A DNA stretch of 25,243 nucleotides, taken from NCBI GenBank assembly GCA_002245135.1, contig NGBS01000297.1:248001-273243 (forward strand), read 5' to 3'. The notes under the pieces were generated by a model, which worked only from the letters and a program-made list of their open reading frames with translations, was not told where the DNA came from and searched no databases. Below are positions 1 to 25,243 of this stretch, piece by piece; the stretch's first letter is position 1, and every line of letters begins with the position of its first letter. The DNA is from Proteromonas lacertae. Its lineage: Eukaryota. The translations under genes were made by a program, and so were the position numbers.

Positions 1-983
1 TCTTCACTTTCATCAGATCCAATTTTTGCTATCACACATTTATCACCTTGTTTATATATACACCTATCACCTTTTTTGAATTGGTTGTACAATCTAATGT
101 CTTTACATTTAATATAATTATCATAATCTCTAATTTTGAATTCTATAATACCATCATCTATTAAGGATTCAATATACTTTTCATACACAAAATGTTCAAC
201 TTTATCATCATAGAAATTACATTTTAATAATTTTTCATCCATATTGTCTATATTACACAATTCTATGTGTTTCTCAACTAGACTTGTATTGTCACAATTA
301 TCATCAATTTCATTCAACATTCTTTCATAGATTTTATAGTCGTCTATCAAATTATTTTTTATTTCATTTAACTTTTCATTTAAATAACTACATTTTTCTA
401 TATCATTATCATATATCCTTAATAAATCATATCTATTAACTATAAATAAACAATATACATATTTCCTTCAACTTTATTTCTATATATTTTCAGTATTTCT
501 GTATCATTTATTCTTTTGGAATACTCTTCTTCGTTTTGTTTGATTAAAGATGTGTAATAATCATAAATGATATTGTTGAATGTGATTTTGTTTATCAAAT
601 ATTTGTAATTGGAAAAATATATCAATGTCTTTAATAAACGATTTATTAATCTCATTATATAGTCATTACATTCCATTGAGTCATTCTTTTCTACTTTTAA
701 TAATTTGTTTATTATTATTTTCAGTATTTCATTTTCAATCTCGAAATTTTTGAATCTATTTTCTTTCATCATATCACTCATTTTACACATTATTGTCAAT
801 AAGTTTTCTATTATTTCTTTCAGATTATATACATCTATGTAATTGGTGTTGGTGATTGGATCATTATTGATATAAAGATTATTCACATTGATATTGTAAC
901 TATTAAAATATTCACTCATTAAACTTATCTCTCCTTTCATTTTAGGAAATAATTCGATTATCTAATATCATTAATATATCATC

Positions 984-1014
<31 letters not shown>

Positions 1015-1342
1015 GAATTTTAGATATATGTTTCAGTTGAAGTATTTTCTTTTTTATATCTCTCAAACTCATTTTACTGTCTATCTTATTGTACATATAT
1101 CTATTTAATGTATTTTCTTCTTTCAATATGAATGGATATTCATTTAAGTATAATTTCTTATAATATATTTTATGCTATTTCATTTTATTATTATTATATA
1201 TATATATTATACTTTTATTGAATACAATAATGATAAATCTATCACTCTCTTTTCTTTCATCTCTTGCATTTTCATCAAGTTCTCTTTACAACTCTCATCA
1301 TCATAACATAATATTTCATTTATTAATTCTTTTCTATTTAAA

Positions 1343-1373
<31 letters not shown>

Positions 1374-4294
1374 CAAGTTTAATTCATCTATCTCTTTTAT
1401 TGACAGTATTGAATTCATCTCATTCAAATAATTATAATTCTCTTTTAGTTCACATAGTTTGTTTATATTTATATCATATATATTCTCATTCTTCTTTTCT
1501 ATATCATCTAAGTCAATTATTAGCTTGCTTTCTCGAAGTTCATATTCATTTCTCATTAATATGTTCTTTAACATATTTCTATTCATTATATTCATCAAAT
1601 ATATACATATGTATATCCATTTTGGGAATTATATCTCTCACATATTTTACTTCTATCTCATCTAATACTCTTTCTAATATCGTATTTATTGTATTATCAT
1701 CATAGTCTTCTTCTTTCAGTAATACACTTATATCAGTCTCTTTTAAACTGAATTTGTTTATTTCATTTATATTATTCTTTAATTCTTCTTTTATATTATT
1801 CACATTTTTCCAATTATCTAAAAATTGATTTATCTTTTTTAATTTGGTTAGTAGAATCTCAAGTATTTCTTGATCACTCTTTTGTAAATCTAAATTGTTC
1901 ATTTCTATGTATAGTTTCAATAATATTGATTTGTTTATTAGATTAAATCTATCTTTTTCTTCTAATTTATACATTTCTTCTTTTATCGTATTATATTTTA
2001 TCATTTTTAGCTTTATCTCATTTATCTATTATTCATTACATTATATTAACATATATATATATATATATATATATATTCATACATTCTCATTACATATATT
2101 ACATATTATACTCTCTTTATAGTTGTTTAGTATTATATCACTTTTCTCTAGTAACATTTCACAGTCTAATTCTTTCAGTATTTCCATTTTACTTTTATAT
2201 TCTTCCATTGAATATTCCATTGAAGGTATTTCATCTTTTAAATCTATATCATTATTTTTCTCATATTCTATTAGATTTAATAGTTTTAAATAGTTTAGAT
2301 TATCTTTCATGATTTTCATTAATTTTTCATTTTCTTCTTTCTTTTCTAACATCTCACTTATATCTTTCAATATTATATCATTATAATCATTGATATAACT
2401 CTATATATATATATATATTATAATTATCATTTTAATATATACATTTATTTCTTTATTACACTCATTCATATCTTCGATTGTTGTATTTTCTGATAAGATC
2501 TTATTCTCATTTTTTTTCATTTCATCATATGATTCTTCATATCTGTTGAATAATTCGGAATAAACGTCATTGTCATATAACTTGTATGTATTGAGTTTGA
2601 TGAAGATATAATCCCTAAATAATAATAACTATACTAATAATTCATACAGACATGAAAGCTGGTTATAAGTATTCTTTGAAGAATGGCAGTAATTAAATGA
2701 GTTCATTAACAACATGTCTAATTTTAAGATATATTTTATAGGTTCTTCATATTCTAAGAATTTGTAATTCTTGTGTTTATTTGATACTTCAATACTATTC
2801 ACAAATTCTTTAAAATACTCAAAATTTCTGTTTTCTTCTATACTTTTGACTATTTGATTGAATGATTCATCTGAAAGTAAATCATTATAAAACATTAAAC
2901 AAAAGTATAATTTAGCTTTATTACAATCTTTTTCTTCCTTATATTTTTCTATCAACTCTTTTGATCTTTTATTCTTTAATCTTATTGAATCCAACTGAAC
3001 ACAATGATAGTTCCATCTTCCCTCATAGATCATATTATAATAATCTGCCCCATATGAATTAGCTTCATCATAATTTAAAGTTTTCTCTATCTTATATTCT
3101 ATACCTAACGATTGCATGTATTGTTCAATGGCTTTTTGAATGAATGGAATTCTAACTGATCCTCCTAAGATTACTACATTACATTCATTAAAATTTGACA
3201 TTGTTTTTCCTTCAATAGTAATTGCTCTTTTTATGAGATATTTTAATCTTATATTGACAAATTTAGAGTTTAATAAATCATTCAATTCATCTATTCTAAA
3301 AACTCCACTATAATCACCTTCTTCATAAATATCATCAATCTCCACAGCAATCTAAATTGAGAATAATCAATAATTATACTTCAGAAGCACCATCTGCTGA
3401 TAACTTACATTTACAACTTTCTATTACTTTCTTGATCTTTAATATATTTCTTCTATCATTCTTTAATATATAACCATGTTGTTCACCATATTCATTGATA
3501 TTACTATAGAAGTAATTAAAAAGTATATTATCAATTTCATTACCTCCTAAACTATTATCACTCACATGATTTATTATCTCACATTTACCCTATTCACCAT
3601 TATATTACAATTATATATACTTTCGTATATTCTATTACACTAATCTCACTGTTATTATATCCTATATCCATTAGAATTATCTTTCGATTTTCATTCTCAT
3701 TTAGTTGACTGTCATTTTCATAACCATAACATAAACTACTACTTATATAGTTTGGTATTATTTCGATATTATTTATTCCATTTAAATTATATAAACTATA
3801 TAACAAACTCTGTTTGAATTTGTCTATATAAGATGGAACAGATAAACATAGATTAAAAGGATAATTTATGTCTCTTTTTTTTAATTGTTCCATTATTTTA
3901 TTTATAAACATGTATTCTATTTGATCAATCGTATATATAGTATTATCAACATAAAATCCTATTCCATTAACACCTATATTAATCAACGAATCTGGTGAAT
4001 GTAATGGTATATTCAATATCATTTCTGAGTTTATATTTCCAAATAAATCCAATGGTTTGTGTAGTGTACAATTGCCTTTCATCTATTACCTATTATCTGA
4101 ATATAATACATTGTGTTGGGCTGTTTCTCCAAATAATCTTTCTGTTTCCTCTAATCTTATAATAAAACTATCAAAATGTAGATGAATTTATACGGTGTGG
4201 ATTTCTTAGATAATTCATTTTCTATTATGATTGTTGGATGTTTACTAGTCAAAACGTATTTACTTCCACCAAAATCACATCCTACACACTCCAT
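1..4294 (-). CDS. Host spliced gene: divergent Hsp70/Hsp110-family nucleotide-binding domain plus long N/E/K-rich helical extension; 3' end lies beyond the window
   Basis: ATG at 4294 (MECVGCDFGGS). Hsp70 motifs: TPFIIRLEETERLFGE, IILMDIGYNNSEISV, LGGNEID, CKCKLS, VVILGGSVRIPFIQ, TLNYDEANSYGA. One open frame results after removing GTAT..TAG introns at 4168-4193, 4083-4109, 3590-3620, 3352-3379, 2615-2647, 2401-2442, 2026-2082, 1579-1606, 1334-1374, 1175-1212, 962-1009 and 433-458 (about 1290 codons in the window). Confidence 0.88.
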
Positions 4295-4411
4295 AAAACA
4301 AAAAATATGAAAAAGAGTCAAACTTGTTTGTTAATCTATTTTGATTTGTTACAGTTATTATTGAATATGTCTCAAGATTGTATAGTTGGATGTGATTCAT
4401 AATAATGAAAG

Positions 4412-4479
4412 AAAGGGGGAAATGAGTACAATTTGAAACCCCTATTTTTTTTGTATTTTTTGTATTGATTTCCCCCTAT
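4412..4479 (+). repeat. Direct repeat copy 1 (~68 bp) with internal 18-bp imperfect inverted arms
   Basis: aaagggggaaatgagtacaatttgaaacccct...ttgtattgatttccccctat recurs at 19396-19462 with one substitution and one T-run indel. Arms 4414-4431 and 4460-4477 are 16/18 complementary. Confidence 0.95.
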
Positions 4480-4526
4480 TGTTTTTTCACCCTTAGAAAC
4501 ATAATTAAACAATAAAAATAATACCA

Positions 4527-4560: not shown

Positions 4561-4631
4561 CCAAAAAAATGGATCCTTTACTCGATCGTGAAATGGATTT
4601 CACGATCGAGTAAAGGACCCATTTTTTTTGG
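4561..4631. repeat. Near-perfect ~34-bp inverted repeat with 2-nt loop
   Basis: ccaaaaaaatggatcctttactcgatcgtgaaat-gg-atttcacgatcgagtaaaggacccattttttttgg. Confidence 0.95.
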
Positions 4632-6491: not shown

Positions 6492-6580
6492 GGCCACTTG
6501 ACAACTTGAATTGTAATATAAGTTACAACTGGGGCCACTTGACAACTTGAATTGTAATATAAGTTACAACTTGGGCCAGT
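6492..6580. repeat. 41-bp-period tandem repeat (2 copies plus the degenerate start of a third)
   Basis: ggccacttgacaacttgaattgtaatataagttacaact at 6492 and 6533; ggcca again at 6574. Confidence 0.93.
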
Positions 6581-7636: not shown

Positions 7637-8596
7637 ATGTTAGTTTCGAATCATCGTGTATACTACTTAAATTCTGATATGATTGTATTATCTGATTCCA
7701 TGGGTGGAGGAAACAAGTATAAGAAGACATTAAAATTGCAATCATTCGATGATGATTATACTCATGTCAGCTTATTACATGCTGTTATACCCAATTCATT
7801 CCCAACTATACAGGAAGAAACAAATGATGAGTTTTCATTAGTATTCACATTGGGATGGAGACATGATGTTCAAGTAGATGCACCAAAGTATCCAAACATC
7901 ATAAAACACCTCAAAATACCAGAAGGATTCTATGATGAAACTCAGATATTAAGTATGATTAATAATTTAGTAAAAAATATGACATATGATGTTTTTGGAA
8001 TAAATGATGCTGCATATAATGAAGAAGGTTCACATGTGTCTATTATACAAGGAAAAGGAGATTTATTTCGTATAGACAATTTCGATGATAATCAAACATA
8101 TCATATTGAGGTAGCTAATGATATGAATATTATATACTATCAAAAAGACCCAGTATATTGGATAGAAAAATTAGAGATCATCACCAAAGATCTTAGTTAC
8201 AAAATATTAGGTATACCTAAAAACAATTACTGGTGTTGTTTTAAAGAATATATTCCATCTGAAGAACCAGAGAATCAACAAGAAATTATGGTTAAGCCAT
8301 TCCCATTTACTCAATTACCATTTCGTCCTTCTTTGATATGGGTTAATTCTATATCTATTAGATTAGACATAGTGAATATTATGCAGGATTCAAATGTATT
8401 AGAAAATATACCCGTTTCAAATCCTGAGTTACCATTTATTACATATCAGAATAATGACATATTGAATACATCGAAGAGATTTAATAATACCTATAGCAAT
8501 GGTATGATCACTATTCAGATTACTCAACAAAATGGTTATGAACTTAATCTTGATAATATTGAGTTTAATTTAGATATTGTTGTATTTAAAGTCTAA
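7637..8596 (+). CDS. Minor capsid protein (penton, single jelly roll)
   Basis: Motifs YYLNSD, VSLLHAVIPNSFPTI, LKIPEGFYD, VLENIPV and ITIQITQQNGYELNLDNIEFNLDIVV are typical of PLV/virophage/Polinton pentons; the gene sits directly upstream of the MCP. Confidence 0.85.
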   Translation: MLVSNHRVYYLNSDMIVLSDSMGGGNKYKKTLKLQSFDDDYTHVSLLHAVIPNSFPTIQEETNDEFSLVFTLGWRHDVQVDAPKYPNIIKHLKIPEGFYDETQILSMINNLVKNMTYDVFGINDAAYNEEGSHVSIIQGKGDLFRIDNFDDNQTYHIEVANDMNIIYYQKDPVYWIEKLEIITKDLSYKILGIPKNNYWCCFKEYIPSEEPENQQEIMVKPFPFTQLPFRPSLIWVNSISIRLDIVNIMQDSNVLENIPVSNPELPFITYQNNDILNTSKRFNNTYSNGMITIQITQQNGYELNLDNIEFNLDIVVFKV

Positions 8597-8627
8597 TTTT
8601 TTTATTTCTTTATTCTTTTGTTTTCTA

Positions 8628-10085
8628 ATGGCTTTATCTATTCCAAAAGAACAGAAACATGGTGTAGATGTCCCTGTGATGCTACCCTTCTATAATTATG
8701 TGAGATTGTCTCCGATGGGATCAACATCAGAATACAAGTTGGATACAAATACTTATTCAGAAGAGATTAGATGGGAGATAAGTGGAGATAATATTATCAA
8801 TTTAGCTAAGTCATATATCCAATTCGATATCGAAGTAAAATTAAATCCTTATGATGATGGTACCTATGCAAGCGATGGTAGTACTGGTAATTTAGTCGGT
8901 AAAGGTTTATATCCGAGTATGATAAAAGGAATTAAAGAAGGGTTTGGCTTGGCCTCTTTTAGAATTTGTAATCAGACCGGAACAGATCTGGTCAAGCTTG
9001 ATGATTCGTATGAACCATATCGTGTATTTATGGACGAATTAGTTAGAAAGAGATCTGATATATTCTATCAAGACAATTACTATGATGGAATACAATTAGA
9101 TTGGGATGATGATAATCATAATTATAAAGTTCAAGATATCAATAAGTGGAAAGTAGAACCTAGTACACAATATGTTGAATTAAAAGCTAGTACTAGTGCA
9201 TCTACAGCAACAGCATATGCAGTTCAGTATAAAGATTCAGTTATATTACATTTCAAATTACAATTAGGTAAATTTTACAATACATTTGCTGCATTAAAGA
9301 GCGATGTATTCTTTGGAGAGAGAATGTATATATGCATTCGTTTTCAAACCACAAGTAATTATGGTTTATTAAAAGCATATACACCAGATGAATATGCAAG
9401 AATGAAAAATGATAAAACAAAAGATAATGTAAACTATACAGTATCACATGCAGAAGTTGATATAAATGAAGCAATATTCAAGAATTTCAAATTCTATGCT
9501 TATATCAACAAGGATACTCAATGCAACAACAATACCAAACAATACTGCTTATCAAAACCTATTCAATTCAATGATTTTAGATGTCATCAAATTAAAATAC
9601 CATCAGGTGGATCTGGCATATTCAATTATTCATTCACATTGAATAGTTCCAATGGACCATTTGTTCGTTACATAATCTATAGGCCATGGATAGAATCATT
9701 AAAAAGATATGCACATGTACCTGAAAATGCACAATTCAGATGGATGATCAATGATTTTGTATATCAGCCAGATTATACACTTATGCAATATTATGATAGC
9801 TATATGACTGTCCGTGAATATTTCCAAGACTCATGGTATGATATATTCAGAAAAGATGAAAAATTCAATGACAAGTTCTTTGAGATATTGAATTTTGGCT
9901 CTAAGGATTTGGACAATATTAAGAACCAGGCAGGTAGACCTTTGGCTACTGATTTGAAAATAACCTTTGAATTTTCAACACCTGGTACAAATGACTTTAC
10001 TAATAATGATATCACTCATCGTTTCTATATCATCACTGGACGTATGGTCACTATTAATGGAAGTGGTATTGTAAGTGTAGTTTAA
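8628..10085 (+). CDS. Major capsid protein (double jelly roll)
   Basis: 485 aa from the first ATG. YVRLSP...EEIRWEISGDNIINLAKSYIQFDIEV resembles the Polinton/PLV MCP N-terminus; beta-rich; C-terminal MVTINGSGIVSVV; lies between penton and ATPase. Confidence 0.85.
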   Translation: MALSIPKEQKHGVDVPVMLPFYNYVRLSPMGSTSEYKLDTNTYSEEIRWEISGDNIINLAKSYIQFDIEVKLNPYDDGTYASDGSTGNLVGKGLYPSMIKGIKEGFGLASFRICNQTGTDLVKLDDSYEPYRVFMDELVRKRSDIFYQDNYYDGIQLDWDDDNHNYKVQDINKWKVEPSTQYVELKASTSASTATAYAVQYKDSVILHFKLQLGKFYNTFAALKSDVFFGERMYICIRFQTTSNYGLLKAYTPDEYARMKNDKTKDNVNYTVSHAEVDINEAIFKNFKFYAYINKDTQCNNNTKQYCLSKPIQFNDFRCHQIKIPSGGSGIFNYSFTLNSSNGPFVRYIIYRPWIESLKRYAHVPENAQFRWMINDFVYQPDYTLMQYYDSYMTVREYFQDSWYDIFRKDEKFNDKFFEILNFGSKDLDNIKNQAGRPLATDLKITFEFSTPGTNDFTNNDITHRFYIITGRMVTINGSGIVSVV

Positions 10086-10093
10086 AAATAATC

Positions 10094-10117
10094 ATAATAT
10101 CGATAACGGCTATATTT
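10094..10117 (+). promoter_or_regulatory. Putative promoter motif upstream of the ATPase (copy at 17632-17655)
   Basis: ataatatcgataacggctatattt vs ataatatcaataacggctatattt (23/24). Confidence 0.6.
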
Positions 10118-10146
10118 CTTATAATTATGTTTTTGTTATTTTTGTT

Positions 10147-11004
10147 ATGAGTAAAGTTAATTTAGAAAAAATAAACAACATAGTCATAAATCCTGTTGAG
10201 ACAGTAGTCAAAGGATGTGGAAAACGCTCCAAAGATAGTGTCCTTGGATATGACTATTTCCAGGAGCCATTCTGCAACATATTTATTTTAGCTAAGAAAA
10301 ACAGTGGTAAGACTACACTTATATTTAATATGATCCAACACTTGCTAAAAAAGGGATATGACCAAGTAGTGTATTTTTTCGTTGCAACTATATCCAAGGA
10401 TATCATATATGAGAAAATCACTGATATGCTCAAGTATAACCAAATTGAGTACCATTGCTATGATTCAGTAGTGAATGAAGATAGAGTGAATATATTGGAT
10501 GCAGTATTAGATAATATCAAAGATATAGACAAAGATAATTATGATTACCCAGAGAATATATTTATATTCGATGATATATCATTCGATTTAAGAAATAAAT
10601 CCGTTTCTAAATTACTTAAGTCAAACCGTCATTACAAGTCAAAAGTAATTATATCAAGTCAATATGTCACTGACATTACTCCCTCTGTTCGTTTACAGCT
10701 TGATTACTGTTTGGTATTCAAAAACCTGAGTATGGCTAATTTACGAAATCTGTATGCAAGTTTAGATATATGGATCGATTTTGATGTTTTCAAATCATAT
10801 TATGATTATGCAACTAAACAGAGTAATCACTCATTTTTATATATCGATTTATATAATCATGAATTTAGAGTGAATTTTGATAGCAGAATTAGAGATAATA
10901 GTAATAATAGCTATAATCACAATAATAAATATGATCACCTCATTTCCTATAGCAGCGATGATGAGTCCACTGATTCATCAAGTTATCCCAGCGATTCGGA
11001 ATAA
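10147..11004 (+). CDS. A32/FtsK-HerA family genome-packaging ATPase
   Basis: Walker A variant AKKNSGKTT, Walker B IFIFDD, NRHY arginine motif, IISSQY, PSVRLQ and HSFLYID. Confidence 0.93.
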   Translation: MSKVNLEKINNIVINPVETVVKGCGKRSKDSVLGYDYFQEPFCNIFILAKKNSGKTTLIFNMIQHLLKKGYDQVVYFFVATISKDIIYEKITDMLKYNQIEYHCYDSVVNEDRVNILDAVLDNIKDIDKDNYDYPENIFIFDDISFDLRNKSVSKLLKSNRHYKSKVIISSQYVTDITPSVRLQLDYCLVFKNLSMANLRNLYASLDIWIDFDVFKSYYDYATKQSNHSFLYIDLYNHEFRVNFDSRIRDNSNNSYNHNNKYDHLISYSSDDESTDSSSYPSDSE

Positions 11005-13907: not shown

Positions 13908-14431
13908 TTAAAGATCTTCTAAATCTTCTTCTTTATCAAGGTTTTTTGAATCGTCACATTGCATGTTTGGCTTGATCAAATGCTTATGTTTTTTTGATGG
14001 TACTAATTCATCTAATGATTCAGATATAGTACTTAATAATTTTCTTTTAGTGGTGTGGATTACACTATCTGGTGTTACAATATCTGCAATATCATAATCA
14101 TCGTACCATGTGTCCATTTTCCATCCTCATCATCATTGAACTCAGCATCATATTCTACATCATCATCAATGAAATCCTTTAAATTACCATTACTATCAAC
14201 ATCACTTGCATTTGGATCATCTTCAGGATCATAGTCATCAGAGTCATCGTCAGTACATTCTGCTTCTCCATATAAGTACTTATACACATTATCAATCATA
14301 TCCCTTTCTCTTTTTCTTTTTTGACTGAATCGCATTTTCTTATCTTCTAAATTTTCTTTCTTTTGGTCTTGATCATTTGATTTACCCATTATGCCTATAA
14401 CGTGTATGGTATTATGGTTGTTTGAATCCAT
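13908..14431 (-). pseudogene. Acidic low-complexity protein, frameshifted at 14117-14120
   Basis: Adding one A to the A4 run gives ..DDEDGKMDTWYDDYD.., which fuses ORFs 14075-14431 and 13908-14117. Confidence 0.55.
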
Positions 14432-14933: not shown

Positions 14934-15463
14934 ATGGTTAAAAGAAGTTCAAAAGTGAAATATCGTAAGTATATCATAGGTAAAGGCAAGTTCTGGGATG
15001 GAGTAAAGAATTTCTTTAAGAAAACAAAAATTTTATCAACAGCAGCTAGTTTAATCCCAGGTGTAGGTCCAGCCTTAGGTAATGTTGTATCCAATGTAGG
15101 ATATGGTAGAAAACGTAGAAGAAGAGGTGGACAAGCAGAATGGAATTATGATGGTGGTATAAGTGGTGCTGGTTCTTTTGGAATAAAGTTAAGAATGCAA
15201 AGATACCAAAGGAATTAAAAAATGTAATTAGTGGTGGTCCAGGCAGTATGCCCTATTTAAAAAATGGTGGAATGGCTAATCCATTTGCTGTAAAGATGTT
15301 AGGTGGTCCAAGCACTATTCCAAAAAAGAATTGGACGAAAGGTGGTCCAAGTACTATACCGAAATTTTTGTTAGCAAAGAAAAAGACTGGTTCTGGTAAA
15401 AGACGTAAAAGTAGTAATAGTCTCGATAATCGATATATTGACAATAAGATTAGAGTTTTCTAG
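14934..15463 (+). CDS. Arg/Gly-rich core / protein VI-like precursor, frameshifted at 15176-15179
   Basis: GKGKFWDGVKNFFKK. Adding one T to the T4 run yields a second motif GAGSFWNKVKNAK and fuses to ORF 15248-15463 (GGPSTIPK x2). Confidence 0.7.
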
Positions 15464-15522
15464 TCTAATTTTATTTTTTTCTATTTTAATCGTATTTCTT
15501 TATTTTCATTCGAAATAACATA

Positions 15523-15816
15523 ATGCCAAAAGGTGGTAGAAGACGTAGATGCGTTTATGGAAGAAGGGGTGGTTCATTTTGGGGTAAGTTAAAAAATTGG
15601 GGTTCCAAAGCATTTAACTGGGCAAAGGATCATAAAATAGCATCCAAAATAGCTAGGGAATTTGGAAAGAACGATATCGCAGATGGATTATCAACAATGG
15701 GATTTGGTCGTAGAAGACGTAGGTCAGGAAGAGGTAGATTACCATTCAATGGAGGTGGGAGTAATCAACAAGCATTATTGAATGCATATTTAAAATCAAA
15801 GGTGGCTCGAATGTAA
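15523..15816 (+). CDS. Arg/Gly-rich protein VI-like (membrane-lytic/core) protein
   Basis: RRGGSFWGKLKNWGSKAFNWAK amphipathic helix; G(F/Y)GRRRRR motif shared with the upstream gene. Confidence 0.75.
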   Translation: MPKGGRRRRCVYGRRGGSFWGKLKNWGSKAFNWAKDHKIASKIAREFGKNDIADGLSTMGFGRRRRRSGRGRLPFNGGGSNQQALLNAYLKSKVARM

Positions 15817-16597: not shown

Positions 16598-17620
16598 ATG
16601 AAAAAACTAAATAAGAAAATACTGCTTGCTGTGTTTGCTCGGATGAGAGGCAAAGGCAAAAGAAAGAAGATACGGAGAGGTGAAGGATATAAAGGACATG
16701 ACAAATATTATCAGAGTTTATATAATAATTTTTATAGAGAAAATGCGAAAGATTTAGTGGATATAAGAAACAGTCGTTTAAATGAAATAAAAGATGAGAT
16801 TACTAAGTTAAATTCTAAAGACACTCCTCCTAATGAAGGTGATATTCGTAAATTGAATGATGAGCAAAAATTTTTAGAGAGACAGAATGCAATCGATTCT
16901 ATGTTATCTACATCATTACATGAAGGTAATGCAATGGCTATACCACTTGCTAATAGTTTAAGAGAGATTGATGATCAGCATTTGTTTGGTCCTAACATGT
17001 ATGTGAATATGAATAGACCTAATTACAATGAAATGGCTCAAGCAAGTGCAAAGACTAGGATGCAGATGGGTGAGTATATGAGTAATCCAATTAACCAAAT
17101 CAAGATGTCACAAATGCAACAAATGGTATATATGCTATATGTTTTGATTTATATATAATAGTAGAAGTTGAATAAATTGATTACTCCTAAAGCAGAAACA
17201 GATATTAAAGTACAGCCGTCTACTGGTAATACAGATGATGTTAAAGAACAGACTGATCATGATCCTGTTGATGATATTACTATTGACGATGTTAAAAAAT
17301 TTACTAAAGAACAAATGGATGAAATATTTGATGAATATGACTTTACAGAAGCTCAGAAAACTAAAATAAAAGAATTATGGGAAGAAGCTCAAAATATTAA
17401 ACAATATGAAGAATGGGTTGCAAATGGAAAAACAGATGATGATGATGATGAAAATGAAGATATTGAATTCAATAAACCAAAAGAAGAAGAAGAAGAAGAT
17501 GATGATGAATTTAAATCTGATTTTGAAGAAGAAGAAGAACAAGAAGATGAGAATGAGGATAATGTTAAAAAAATTGATAGACAGTTAAACAGAATTTTTG
17601 ATGAACTGGGTATTCATTAA
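16598..17620 (+). CDS. Spliced viral gene (intron 17126-17164): basic N-terminus with GxG motifs, acidic C-terminus
   Basis: ORFs 16598-17158 and 17168-17620 share a frame. Removing the 39-nt GTATAT..TAG segment deletes the stops and gives QMQQM/KLNKLITPK. Confidence 0.75.
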
Positions 17621-19032: not shown

Positions 19033-19395
19033 TCTTATGATAGTTTATAGTGTATTGGAAATAGAAAAAACGAATTAAAAAAAAGAAGGCTTGAAGGCTC
19101 GAAATTGTTTTTAACAAAAAATAAACTGTTTTTTGAGAGCAATCCAGTCCAAGATTAAAGGCTTGAAATATATATTACAAAGCTTGTAGAATATTCTGCA
19201 AAGCACTGTAAATCTTAAAAAATAAAGATTAACTTAGTCAAACCATCAAGCTTGATGTTTTTTTCTTTTGATTTTTTTATTCTATAATTAATTTAATACT
19301 ATGTTAATTATATGTTATTGTGAGTCATCATTGTGAGTGCATCGACTGATAGTCAAATTTGATATTTGAAAGATGATGTATAATAATAATGAATA

Positions 19396-19462
19396 AAAGG
19401 GGGAAATGAGTACAATTTGAAACCCCTGTTTTTTTGTATTTTTTGTATTGATTTCCCCCTAT
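19396..19462 (+). repeat. Direct repeat copy 2 of 4412-4479
   Basis: Near-identical sequence in the same orientation, 14984 bp downstream. Confidence 0.95.
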
Positions 19463-19657
19463 GTGTTTTTTGTCCGTTTCATAATCAAATCATAATTCAA
19501 GCTTACATTATTTTTCGCTTTTCTGTTTGAATTTAAACAAAAATAATTATTCCATTTGAATCCTCATCTTATGATGAATCTATTTATGTTGTTAGTTCAA
19601 ATTATAGAAAGTGAATGACATATAATTTCAAAAAATAATTCAATAAAAACAATCTCA

Positions 19658-19709
19658 ATAGGATGGTCAACACATGGTGTGATATGACACCATATAGTGA
19701 CCATCCTAT
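19658..19709. repeat. Imperfect hairpin
   Basis: ataggatggtca..atggtgt-gatatg-acaccat..tgaccatcctat (12-bp and 7-bp stems). Confidence 0.85.
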
Positions 19710-19884: not shown

Positions 19885-20683
19885 TTAATAATCATTTTGG
19901 TACTCTGGCTCCTCATCATCATCATCTACTATATATTGTGAGAAGTTATCATCATCATCTTCCTCTGTAGTACTATCTTCTTGTTCTTGGTTTTTGGTTG
20001 AAATGTTTTTTTGATTTATTTTCTTTCTTTTGAATCTTGGAGTTTTAGATGTACTGCGCTTTCTTTTTGTGGATACCACCTTTAACAACTTGTTGTTGTT
20101 GTCATCATCATCATTATAATCATCATCATTCAGGTTATCAAACAACGATGCTATAGAGACTTTACTACTTACTATACTTTCAGCAGTACTTCTGTAAACA
20201 ATATCTCCTTTCGAATTCTTGTTTTCTTCTTTTTCGCATTTTGCTAAATCGTTGTCACCGAAATGTATGATATACATACAAGTCAGTTCCACCATGTCCT
20301 CCATTGCATGGTCAAGCATACGATCATACTATTGATTCAAAATTGAAATATATATTAAATGGATATACGATGCTTTTGTCCAGATCCTTTTTATACATGA
20401 TATTACATAGCAGGACAGACATCAACACTCTGGACATTTTTAATCTTTCATGTCGAGCATCAATCTTTTCAATTTCTGTGAATCTTTTGTACCATGTACT
20501 GAAACGCCTTATACTGAAGTTACCATTCCAGCTATAGACATATAATAATATATTATACCTATAACGTTGCAAATCTTTCTCATGTTCTACAATCGTCTTA
20601 AAATTCTCACAAAAAATTTTATATATGCTCGGATTTGGATCATTAATGAAACTATTTTTGTATAGTATCTTCCAGTTGCTCAT
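19885..20683 (-). CDS. Spliced viral gene (intron 20329-20368): helical domain plus acidic/NLS tail
   Basis: Removing the 40-nt gtatatcc..aatcaatag segment joins ..DLDKSI/YDRMLDHAMEDM.. in frame. Confidence 0.75.
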
Positions 20684-21015
20684 AATAAGTGAATTGAAAG
20701 GGAAATAACGTTGAACAATGAACAAATGTTATATGTATATATGAAACGGATATATATATTTTTAAATGTTGCTATAAAGACATATAACTCTATTAATTTA
20801 GATAATAATCATAATGAAATGAATTTCATTATTACTTTTGTTTTTTGTTTTTGGACCATATGTTTAGCACTAATAGTTACGATCCACATTTATACAGCTC
20901 ATATAGCAACCAGAACCCATATCCTGTCAAACCGTTACCTACAAATGGTAACTTATCACTTGCAACATATATTAACCATGATAATAATATATATTAAGGG
21001 CTACAGACCCAAAAT

Positions 21016-21058
21016 GGCTTGACGCTAGACCACGAGGCTTGACGCTGGACCCGAGGCT
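21016..21058. repeat. Short GC-rich tandem repeat (~19 bp x2)
   Basis: ggcttgacgctagaccacga ggcttgacgctggacccga ggct. Confidence 0.8.
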
Positions 21059-21106
21059 AAAATTTATATATTCGTTTCATTTTTCTTATTTTTCATTTTA
21101 TTCAAT

Positions 21107-21207
21107 AACCGTTCATTTGTACAACGGTTTTAACGGTCGTTACGAATCCGTTACATGTCAGTTACATAACTGACGTGTAACTGACGGTGTAACTGCCGTC
21201 CGTTGTA
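21107..21207. repeat. Imperfect palindrome rich in AACGG/GTTAC motifs
   Basis: Core gttacatgtcagtta-ca-taactgacgtgtaac (14/15); outer arms tacaacgg/ccgttgta. Confidence 0.8.
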
Positions 21208-21342: not shown

Positions 21343-21465
21343 TTCATAATCGATTTTCCTTTCCCTTTCTTTTTTTCACTTATTTACCTAGAGAAAAGTG
21401 ATCGACTTCACTTTCCCTAAGTAAGGAAGTGAAAAAAAGAAAGGGTAAGAAGAATCGGTTATGGA
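21343..21465. repeat. ~120-bp imperfect hairpin
   Basis: Perfect 19-bp arms ccctttctttttttcactt / aagtgaaaaaaagaaaggg plus inner and outer partial stems. Confidence 0.85.
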
Positions 21466-22193: not shown

Positions 22194-25100
22194 ATGTATC
22201 CCAGCTATCCTCCTTGGTTTAATCCGTGGTATTACCAGTCTCCAAGTACTTCTATGCCTATTCAAGGCAATAGTCAAGCAAATCAGATTCCAATGTTGCC
22301 ACAAAGTTATTTTAATCCCTGGATGAACCCTTATTTTACTCCAGCTATCCCACCACCACCATCCTATTACTATCCTCCACCATATTATGTAGGATCATTA
22401 AATCAACATCCACAACAACCTCAGCAGCAGCAGCAACAACAACAACAACAACAACAATCAAACACTACTAGAAGTACTAATGGAACTAGTTTCATAACAC
22501 CAAGAAGAAGAACAACATCTTCAATTGTAATTGATTAACCACCTCCTCCACCTCCAAAAATACAGCGATTAGCAGAAATCCCAGATGATTTATTACCAGA
22601 TACACCTCCTCCTGAAGATCCACCAACACTTTCACCAATTAATGATGGACCAATTCCTGAAATACATCCTCAATCAACTACAGATGTTGAAAGAAGAAGG
22701 CAGCTACAGGAAGAAATGATTGCTCTGGATGTTGTTGATAATCATCCAGAGCAGCTGAAAACAATGTCACATCCTGAAAGAGTAAGTTTGTTACAACTTG
22801 TAGAGAGAAGTAGTAGAGACTACGAACGTACCTACGAGAAGATTATAAATGAAGAAGATGGAAAGAAACCTGAGGATTTGTTTACCCAAATCTGCAATGC
22901 ATCAAGTGATTTTATGGTTACCATACGTAACTACATAAATGAGAAGAAATTTTCTTATATAAAAGTTTATTTCAGATTCAGAGTAGGTTATATAGGATCC
23001 GATGAACCAGCCAATGCACAAGTAAGTTGTTACAAAACATTCGAAACAGCGCCAGAAATTATAACTTCTCAAGAGTTAGGTACAATTGGTTCAAAGTTAA
23101 ACAATGCCATGATTCGAGATTTAGGTTCAATTTTCAACACTGAAAGATCTGAACTAAAGTTCAGATATATTAAGAAGGTAGAGATGATACTGATGAAAAG
23201 TTCAATGGCTGCTGGATCCTCTACAGAAGATGACAACATAAAGTTACCAGCAAGTCTCAACAATAGAAAGTGCGTTATTAATTTAGTAAGATATAGTGAA
23301 GAATGTAAGAATATGTGCTTTTTATTTAGTGTGGCAGCTGGTTTACACTATATAGAGTTCAAAGACCACCGTAACAGAGCAATGAAATATAAACAGTATG
23401 TAGACTTAATGGATGTAAGTAGTTTAAGGTTTCCAGTAGATGCAATTAATGATAGTGACAGAATTGATGAGTTTGAACAGCTGAATCATATTACTATCAA
23501 TATATTTACAATAGACCAGAATGAACCAATACCTTTATACGTTACCAACATAGATAAAAGAAAACACTGGCCTCATGTGAACCTATTGATATATAAAGAT
23601 CATTATATGGTAATAACAAAGTTAGAAGCCTTCCTATCACCTTCTGGTAAAAGGTGTCATAATTATTATACCAGATGCCAGTATTGTTTCTGTACTTTAT
23701 CAACAGCTGATATGATAATTCAACATCAGAAAGAGAATTGTCAATTACAAAAGGAATCATTCGTCAATTTCCACCTCCAGATACCTTCATCAAGTTTCAT
23801 AATTTCAAATACCAACAAATGATTCCTGTAGTATTATACTGGGATACAGAAGTTATACAAGTACCAATAGATCCTTCTGAAGTAATACCTGGAGCCAAAG
23901 GAGCGTTTAAAAAACATATTCTCAGCAGTTGGTGCATTCACTTAAGTTCCAGGTACCCTGAAATCATCAGCGAAGAAACATTCTTCGGAAAACTGGAATT
24001 GCAGCAAGATCCACAAGATTTGGAGATGCAACTAGTAAAGAAGTTTGTTGAGATTCAAGATTATGTATTGAAGAAGTATGAAGATTATAAAAGTGGTGAA
24101 TTGAAACCATTAGATGAAAGCACTTATATTCCAGCTCATAAAAATATCGATAAATGTATGTGGTGCAATACACCCTTCAATGAAAACGACAGAAATAGAA
24201 GGCGAACAAGACACCATGACCATTTTACTGGCAAGTATATTGCAACCTTATGTTCAAACTGTAATTGGCATTGTAGTTTACAACATATGCCTATACCATG
24301 TTTGGCACACAACAGTAAAAACTATGACAATAACTTTATAATACGCGGATTATCAAAGTTGGATAAAGAAATGGAAGCAAAATGGTACAATGATAATAAT
24401 ATTCCTATTCCAAATGATGATGATGATGATGATGAAGATAATGAAATTATACAATTACCAATACCTGAACCTGAACCTGAACCAATTGCTGATAGATTAG
24501 CTGAATACAATAGAGGTATTGAAGAAGAAAAGAAACAAGAACAAGAAGCAAAAACAGTTGATGATGAAGAAGATGCAGAAACAGAAGAAGATACTGATTC
24601 TGATTTGCCATTACCAGAAATACCACCAAATGCAATTGAAATAGTTGATGAGAATGATCCAGCAAATGAAGAAGCATTTAATGAGTTGTATTACATGTTA
24701 CATAGTAGAGATCATTACATATCACCAAGAACAGCAGAAGATATTGGATTAGAAGAAGAGATGGGAAATATTATTGTTTCACAACCTAATTCAACAACAA
24801 CTGAACAACAACAACAACAACAACCAACACCAAGAAAGAAGAAATATCATTCAAAACTATCTGTATTGTTAAAAACTGATAATAAGTTTTTACTTATCAA
24901 GTTCATGAAGTTACACTTTATAGATAGTTGTCAATTTATGCCAGCATCATTAGATTCATTAGTAAAATCATTGAAAGTCGAAACTGATGCACATGCTAAT
25001 CATAAAGTACTCTTTAAACCAGTTTATCAATATGTAACACAAACAAAAGAGATAAATGATTGTTTAAAAGAGAGAAACTGGACAGTGGATGATTTTATAG

Positions 25101-25243
25101 CTAAGTGGGGTTTACAGAAAGGTCATTTCCCCTACGAATACGTAGATAGTATTCAAAAGTTATACCTTACTGATTAATTACCTAGAAAAGAAGATTTTAA
25201 GTCTCAATTAAAACAGAATGAAGGTATTTCTGATTATAACTAT
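22194..25243 (+). pseudogene. polB: Protein-primed family B DNA polymerase (Polinton-type), 5' part, interrupted
   Basis: Motifs KLPASLNNRKCVIN..CFLFSV, FPV, EFEQLNHITINIF, HVNLL..HYMVI, PVVLYWDTE (ExoI), HHDHFTGKY..CSNCN (EndoVII-like), AHNSKNYD (ExoII), FIDSCQFMPASLDSLV and KGHFPYEY. In-frame TAA at 22536 and 25175; -1 shift near 23749-23752. Confidence 0.92.

Follow-up and report, generated by a model that had tools for sequence, protein, structure and literature searches.

Endogenous Polinton-like viruses and Maverick-Polintons have been described in protist genomes (PMC10120064, PMC8502044), and a virus of the same general type, the MELD virus of Blastocystis, was described by Starrett et al. 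2021 (PMC8502044). According to the methods of the largest protist survey (Bellas et al. 2023, PMC10120064), endogenous viruses of this type "do not contain introns", and, as those methods describe, surveys of this kind use prokaryotic gene finders that assume no introns. Split ORFs in such surveys are interpreted as decay. Group I introns are mentioned for some Polinton-like viruses (PMC12220804), and a dinoflagellate study states, where it deals with splice sites, that GT-AG sites were sought and none found (PMC12721341). Spliceosomal introns in eukaryotic DNA viruses are nevertheless established, and PMC12768974 names mirusviruses, pandoraviruses, some chloroviruses and decaying endogenous elements. 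In the punuivirus GEVE, introns are present in 61 of 506 genes and are enriched in latency genes (bioRxiv 10.64898/2026.10.09.758095).

The element in the window analysed here (the whole stretch of 25,243 nt) is like the protist elements as they are described in PMC10120064 and PMC8502044 in its integration next to a host gene, its putative capsid-like protein, its A32-type ATPase and its putative PolB-like gene. We interpret it as an endogenous Polinton-like virus, and the host gene next to it is Hsp70-like. Within the element, a 40-nt segment on the minus strand is likely a real spliceosomal mini-intron of the host type, and it is probably the second of two in its gene and one of three in the element.

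The viral element and the neighbouring host gene

The features of the window are as follows.

1 to 4294, minus strand: host Hsp70/Hsp110-like gene, parsed into exons and 12 introns (26-57 nt, GTAT...TAG in every case) on which the intron model was built
4399 to 4487 and 19383 to 19471, plus strand: 90-nt direct repeat, 94% identity, opening both modules; the second copy opens the module of the intron-bearing gene
7637 to 11004, plus strand: virion cluster with a putative minor capsid gene (from position only), a major capsid-like gene (8628-10085) and an A32-type packaging ATPase gene (10147-11004)
17126 to 17164, plus strand: likely mini-intron of the capsid module, 39 nt, phase 0, with three in-frame stops; its removal would connect the ORFs at 16598-17158 and 17315-17620
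19885 to 20328, minus strand: exon 2, encoding about 60 ordered-looking residues and then acidic tracts around a K/R-rich stretch resembling a nuclear localisation signal (NLS)
20329 to 20368, minus strand: mini-intron B, likely spliceosomal by its joint score, 40 nt, phase 0, GTATAT...AATAG; break shared with the copy P0087
20369 to 20531, minus strand: exon 1b, predicted to be helical at low confidence (mean pLDDT 46)
20532 to 20558, minus strand: mini-intron A, likely, in the same gene, 27 nt (3n), phase 2, without stops, AG/GTATAA...CTATAG
20559 to 20683, minus strand: exon 1a, starting at ATG 20683
22194 to 25243, plus strand: protein-primed PolB-like gene, broken by TAA 22536-22538, a frameshift near 23770-23820 and TAA 25175-25177

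The host gene gave two HSP70 Pfam matches above the cut-off (E 2.9e-5 and 3.7e-6) and lies in a region of 18-26% GC; its protein is at least 1289 aa long, with a long divergent C-terminal extension. The compact, virus-like element begins at 4399, approximately 105 nt upstream of the start codon of the host gene, measures approximately 20 kb and extends past the end of the window.

Eighty-six homologues of the A32-type ATPase were found, many of them with PF04665, the closest in public assemblies being 89% identical; one of them (P0008), 62% identical to the ATPase, clears the Pox_A32 cut-off. An alignment search with the ATPase returned five loci from 84 stretches, corresponding to five viral contigs of 18-21 kb in IMG/VR with ATPase identities of 28-35%. 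Sixteen of the ATPases (P0001-P0016; 47-89% identity) come from Logan only and suggest that related elements form a clade not yet described. The major capsid-like protein (485 aa) had no Pfam match and its predicted fold was unusable (pLDDT 32). In the Atlas, capsid clusters of Preplasmiviricota and NCLDV are among its look-alikes at 0.97, a weak language-model result of low recognition.

In the PolB-like gene, which is truncated by the window end, the Pfam matches to DNA_pol_B_2 (E 0.016) and Endonuclease_7 (E 0.0018) were weak and both below the cut-off. The gene also contains putative exonuclease motifs. None of its breaks is explained by an intron. Three further frame breaks between adjacent ORFs, near 14117, 13724 and 12283 on the minus strand, are likewise without a good intron and could be mutations, sequencing errors or true gene boundaries. 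Altogether, the element contains six other breaks that no intron explains, and frameshifts are common here.

No integrase match was obtained among the 21 ORFs scanned in the window, and terminal inverted repeats were not found in it, the repeat present being direct. Virion genes are present in the first module, where neither a replicase nor an integrase was recognised, and the second contains the PolB-like gene. The arrangement of the 90-nt repeat could reflect a tandem insertion, an element flanked by direct repeats or a two-segment virus with shared ends. Long inverted repeats at 4563-4628, 19658-19709, 21147-21184 and 21345-21463, near the module starts and upstream of the PolB-like gene, are possible origins or terminal structures. 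A 41-nt tandem repeat (98%) in a non-coding gap at 6492-6573 and a GC-rich short tandem repeat at approximately 21014-21060, upstream of the intron-bearing gene, are possible promoter elements. Three small G/K/R-rich ORFs at 14934-15816 on the plus strand resemble virion core proteins, and one of them gave a weak match to a viral contig (L003, 3200-3343; E 0.002).

The 40-nt segment and the gene that carries it

The earlier note had placed a phase-0 segment of 40 nt at 20329-20368 on the minus strand, and its coordinates, phase and length were all found to be exact. The part upstream of the segment (20683-20369) is 315 nt or 105 codons long, hence phase 0, and the part downstream (20328-19885) is 444 nt long, corresponding to 147 codons and a stop. 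When both parts were joined by script without the 40 nt, a single frame of 252 codons with no internal stop was obtained. Read unspliced, the upstream frame runs for 119 aa to a stop at 20326-20324, and the acceptor TAG of the segment doubles as the final stop upstream of the downstream frame. The GC content of the segment is 17.5%, compared to 33-36% in the exons on either side, and its codons in the upstream frame fall within the 7 least coding-like of 3855 windows. Its ends, GTATAT and AATAG, fit the host consensus GTAT...TAG (12 of 12 host introns), and at 40 nt and 17.5% GC it falls in the host intron length range of 26-57 nt (host GC 13%). By-eye inspection of the 12 host introns and the candidates revealed no clear common branch point motif. 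Eighteen GT/GC..AG pairs are able to fuse the two frames; the 40-mer has the best score among them, and the remaining 17 were rejected on that ground. A self-splicing group I or II intron, for which an Rfam structure and hundreds of nucleotides would be expected, was rejected for a segment of only 40 nt in a window with no Rfam match. The possibility of an alternative genetic code was also dropped, since the standard code leaves the long viral ORFs open.

The intron model was derived from the 12 introns of a single host gene, parsed in this analysis. A GT..AG parse in which only the intron count was minimised yielded 12, of which 11 were GTAT...TAG although this motif had not been imposed; with GTAT required, 12 of 12 were GTAT...TAG, with lengths of 26-57 nt and 13% GC. 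A first scoring, in which the repair was chosen by splice-site score alone (7/6-nt sites), failed to discriminate and was superseded by a joint score of sites and body composition. By splice sites alone, the 40-nt segment scored 9.0, under all 12 leave-one-out host values (10.7-14.7), and this value was attained by approximately 13% of simulated frameshifts (196, 198 and 192 of 1500 each). The site-only score thus speaks against the intron reading, and only sites and body composition together discriminate. Moreover, some GT-AG repair exists for 1348-1370 of 1500 simulated frameshifts (approximately 90%) and 18 pairs fuse the frames, so that GT...AG ends alone do not settle the choice between an intron and a frameshift.

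The joint score of the segment was 13.9 bits (13.6 with longer sites), higher than 3 and lower than 9 of the 12 leave-one-out host scores (range 6.9-26.4). Indels were simulated at alternate positions in 17 viral ORFs with intact frames, 5121 for each type of change. Repair at 13.9 bits was possible for none of the duplications, two of the one-base deletions and none of the two-base deletions, or 2 of 15,363 overall. None of 12 co-oriented real gene junctions (top 9.4) and none of the 6 other breaks (top 5.1) reached the same score, and 5, 3 and 1 of 3000 dinucleotide shuffles in three windows around the junction, in which AT-richness was kept, did reach it; all of these controls use one small model and are not mutually independent. 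The segment ranked sixth among the 2443 GT..AG windows present in the viral ORFs, which total 17,247 nt. It was outranked by two versions of the 17126 intron, by the 27-nt segment at 20558-20532 and by two windows, 22 and 25 nt long, that lie in intact frames; the latter are shorter than every host intron, their exclusion being a post hoc filter. The full match to the host intron type exceeds chance, unlike bare GT-AG ends. The mini-intron reading of the earlier note is partly supported and is the best one: the segment fits the 12 parsed host introns, scores above three null controls and sits at a break common to an independent copy, and the splicing itself is predicted from sequence.

The gene model with one intron overlooked the 27-nt segment at 20558-20532, which scored 16.7 bits and ranked second among the 2443 windows. 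AG directly precedes its GT, its 9 codons are among the lowest 7 of 3923 coding windows, and TATAG closes both the upstream exon and the segment itself at its 3' end. This intron is less certain because the frame is open without its removal. In the other module, the intron at 17126 needs the acceptor at 17164 (39 nt) for an open frame, since the 36-nt version leaves a stop. It passes too, so host-type introns are likely present in both modules, as had been proposed; the further statement that both modules are adapted to the host spliceosome exceeds the data, in which a benefit is not demonstrated. By eye, the sequence common to the three segments of 27, 39 and 40 nt is the splice consensus only.

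The product would be 243 aa long if the 27-nt and 40-nt segments are both removed and 252 aa if the 27 nt are kept. The fusion of about 252 aa that had been proposed is thus borne out as an open frame, but 243 aa is probably the likelier length, given the additional 27-nt segment. Pfam, PHROG and PDB-sequence searches gave no match to the gene and the Atlas no usable one; these searches covered the unspliced frames, and a domain spanning the junction could escape them. The single-sequence folds were of low confidence. The product is an orphan and, judged by its tail of acidic tracts around a K/R-rich stretch, most likely a nuclear regulatory protein.

The copy P0087 comes from a separate Logan contig of 1671 nt, from an independent public assembly; it is identical at 113 of 119 residues (95%) and ends at the same residue. 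It was the sole match both in a HMMER scan of 1.84 billion representatives and in a word search. Because P0087 stops at the same residue, the break is no error of the present assembly and is older than the split of the two copies, and an assembly error private to the window was rejected. Two of the six changes fall inside the 22 intron-like codons (p = 0.31; protein only), and the residues bearing the splice ends are unchanged. P0087 is unable to separate an intron from an inherited frameshift, the two copies being so similar that common ancestry could account for a frameshift in both. A fused homologue was found in 0 of 44 candidates among longer proteins, and DNA homologous to exon 1 in 0 of 18 stretches in viral contigs and 0 of 244 in metagenome contigs. 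Homologue DNA was likewise not found by a terminal-repeat motif search or by searches with single ATPase and PolB sequences, and the gene was not found in the five viral contigs sharing the ATPase. The earlier note had named homologues in which the segment is coding as evidence against an intron; these searches yielded no fused or diverged homologue, and the sole one, P0087, is 95% identical and represented by protein only.

Alternative readings of the segment

With its length of 40 nt (3n+1), an intron changes the frame in the same way as one additional base does, and the segment could be coding sequence of one gene whose frame was lost when a single base was inserted during decay of the endogenous copy. 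Decay is visible nearby, with a frameshift and two in-frame stops in the PolB-like gene of the same module and three more breaks in the other module, but none of the six other real breaks reaches the joint score. Although approximately 90% of random frameshifts permit some GT-AG repair, only 2 of the 15,363 simulated ones were repairable at this level, and the segment is poor as codons. By inspection, the extra base would be confined to the few bases between two stops, 20331-20324. P0087 could have inherited the break from a common ancestor, whereas its identical stopping residue makes an insertion by error in this assembly alone unlikely. We consider a broken coding sequence of this kind improbable.

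Very improbable, in our judgement, is an arrangement of two separate genes of 119 aa and 144 aa (ATG 20319), in which the AT-rich segment would form the end of the first gene and serve the second as promoter or leader. Both ORFs do have an ATG and a stop, and the stop of the first is kept in P0087, but the spacer between them would be 4 nt, compared to 29-111 nt in the 12 other co-oriented pairs, and at none of those 12 junctions can the genes be fused by an intron of equal score. T-rich sequence is found upstream of most start codons in the element; shuffles that keep the AT-richness nevertheless reach the score only 1-5 times per 3000. A different question is raised by intron-generating transposons (introners), from which a real intron could have been gained after integration; such a gain bears only on where the intron came from and does not contradict splicing. 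According to PMC12166617, 25% of the integrated viral elements in dinoflagellates contain introners, and the TATAG at the upstream exon end and at the 3' end of the 27-nt segment is in keeping with such a gain. The three segments, however, are unlike in length (27, 39 and 40 nt) and by eye share the splice consensus only, and no family of repeated copies was found within the window, which makes this origin unlikely.

Expression, origin and comparison with known systems

With the 40-nt segment read as a host-type mini-intron, the gene would be transcribed in the nucleus by host RNA polymerase II, and the host spliceosome would remove the 40-nt segment and probably the 27-nt segment. The predicted product would consist of a helical N-terminal domain and an acidic tail with a basic, nuclear-localisation-like stretch, and retention of the 40-nt intron would lead to a 119-aa protein without the tail. 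Introns of this type would imply dependence on the host spliceosome. We infer that they were already present in the working virus, because three gains beside only about six other breaks are hard to obtain under neutral decay and because the three segments have no transposon-like sequence in common. More speculatively, and with considerable doubt, the infectious form of the lineage might carry its own host-calibrated mini-introns in the capsid and replication modules, which would mean transcription in the host nucleus and not in a giant-virus factory, with retention of the 40 nt switching between a 119-aa form without the NLS tail and a 243-aa form with it.

If the mini-introns are real, some genes scored as broken are intact and some elements are less degraded than scored. 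They would also provide a sequence marker for expression in the host nucleus as against dependence of Polinton-like viruses on giant viruses, and the intron type would tie the element to its host lineage. Host-sized mini-introns in Polinton-like viruses were not found in the openly accessible main texts searched, and supplements may list introns. Viral spliceosomal introns are known already from other viruses.

Compared to the elements as described by Bellas et al. 2023 (PMC10120064), the present one likely has two or three host-type introns, and in its window no integrase was recognised and terminal inverted repeats were not found. The host part, with 18-26% GC and introns of 26-57 nt, resembles, in these features only, a low-GC Blastocystis lineage, reported in PMC12129017 with 21-23% GC and introns longer and more variable than 30 nt. 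Mirusviruses (PMC12768974) and the punuivirus (bioRxiv 10.64898/2026.10.09.758095), from what these accounts relate, are alike in having host-type GT-AG introns that are read as a sign of nuclear transcription. In contrast, they belong to other phyla, are large or giant in size and have RNA-supported introns of approximately 80 and 176 nt, respectively, and here the element is approximately 20 kb, with introns of 27-40 nt proposed on sequence alone. The introners in dinoflagellate eupolintoviruses, as PMC12166617 presents them, are alike in being intron-type sequence within integrated Maverick-Polinton-like viruses, but those are repeated transposon copies, whereas the three segments here share the splice consensus only.
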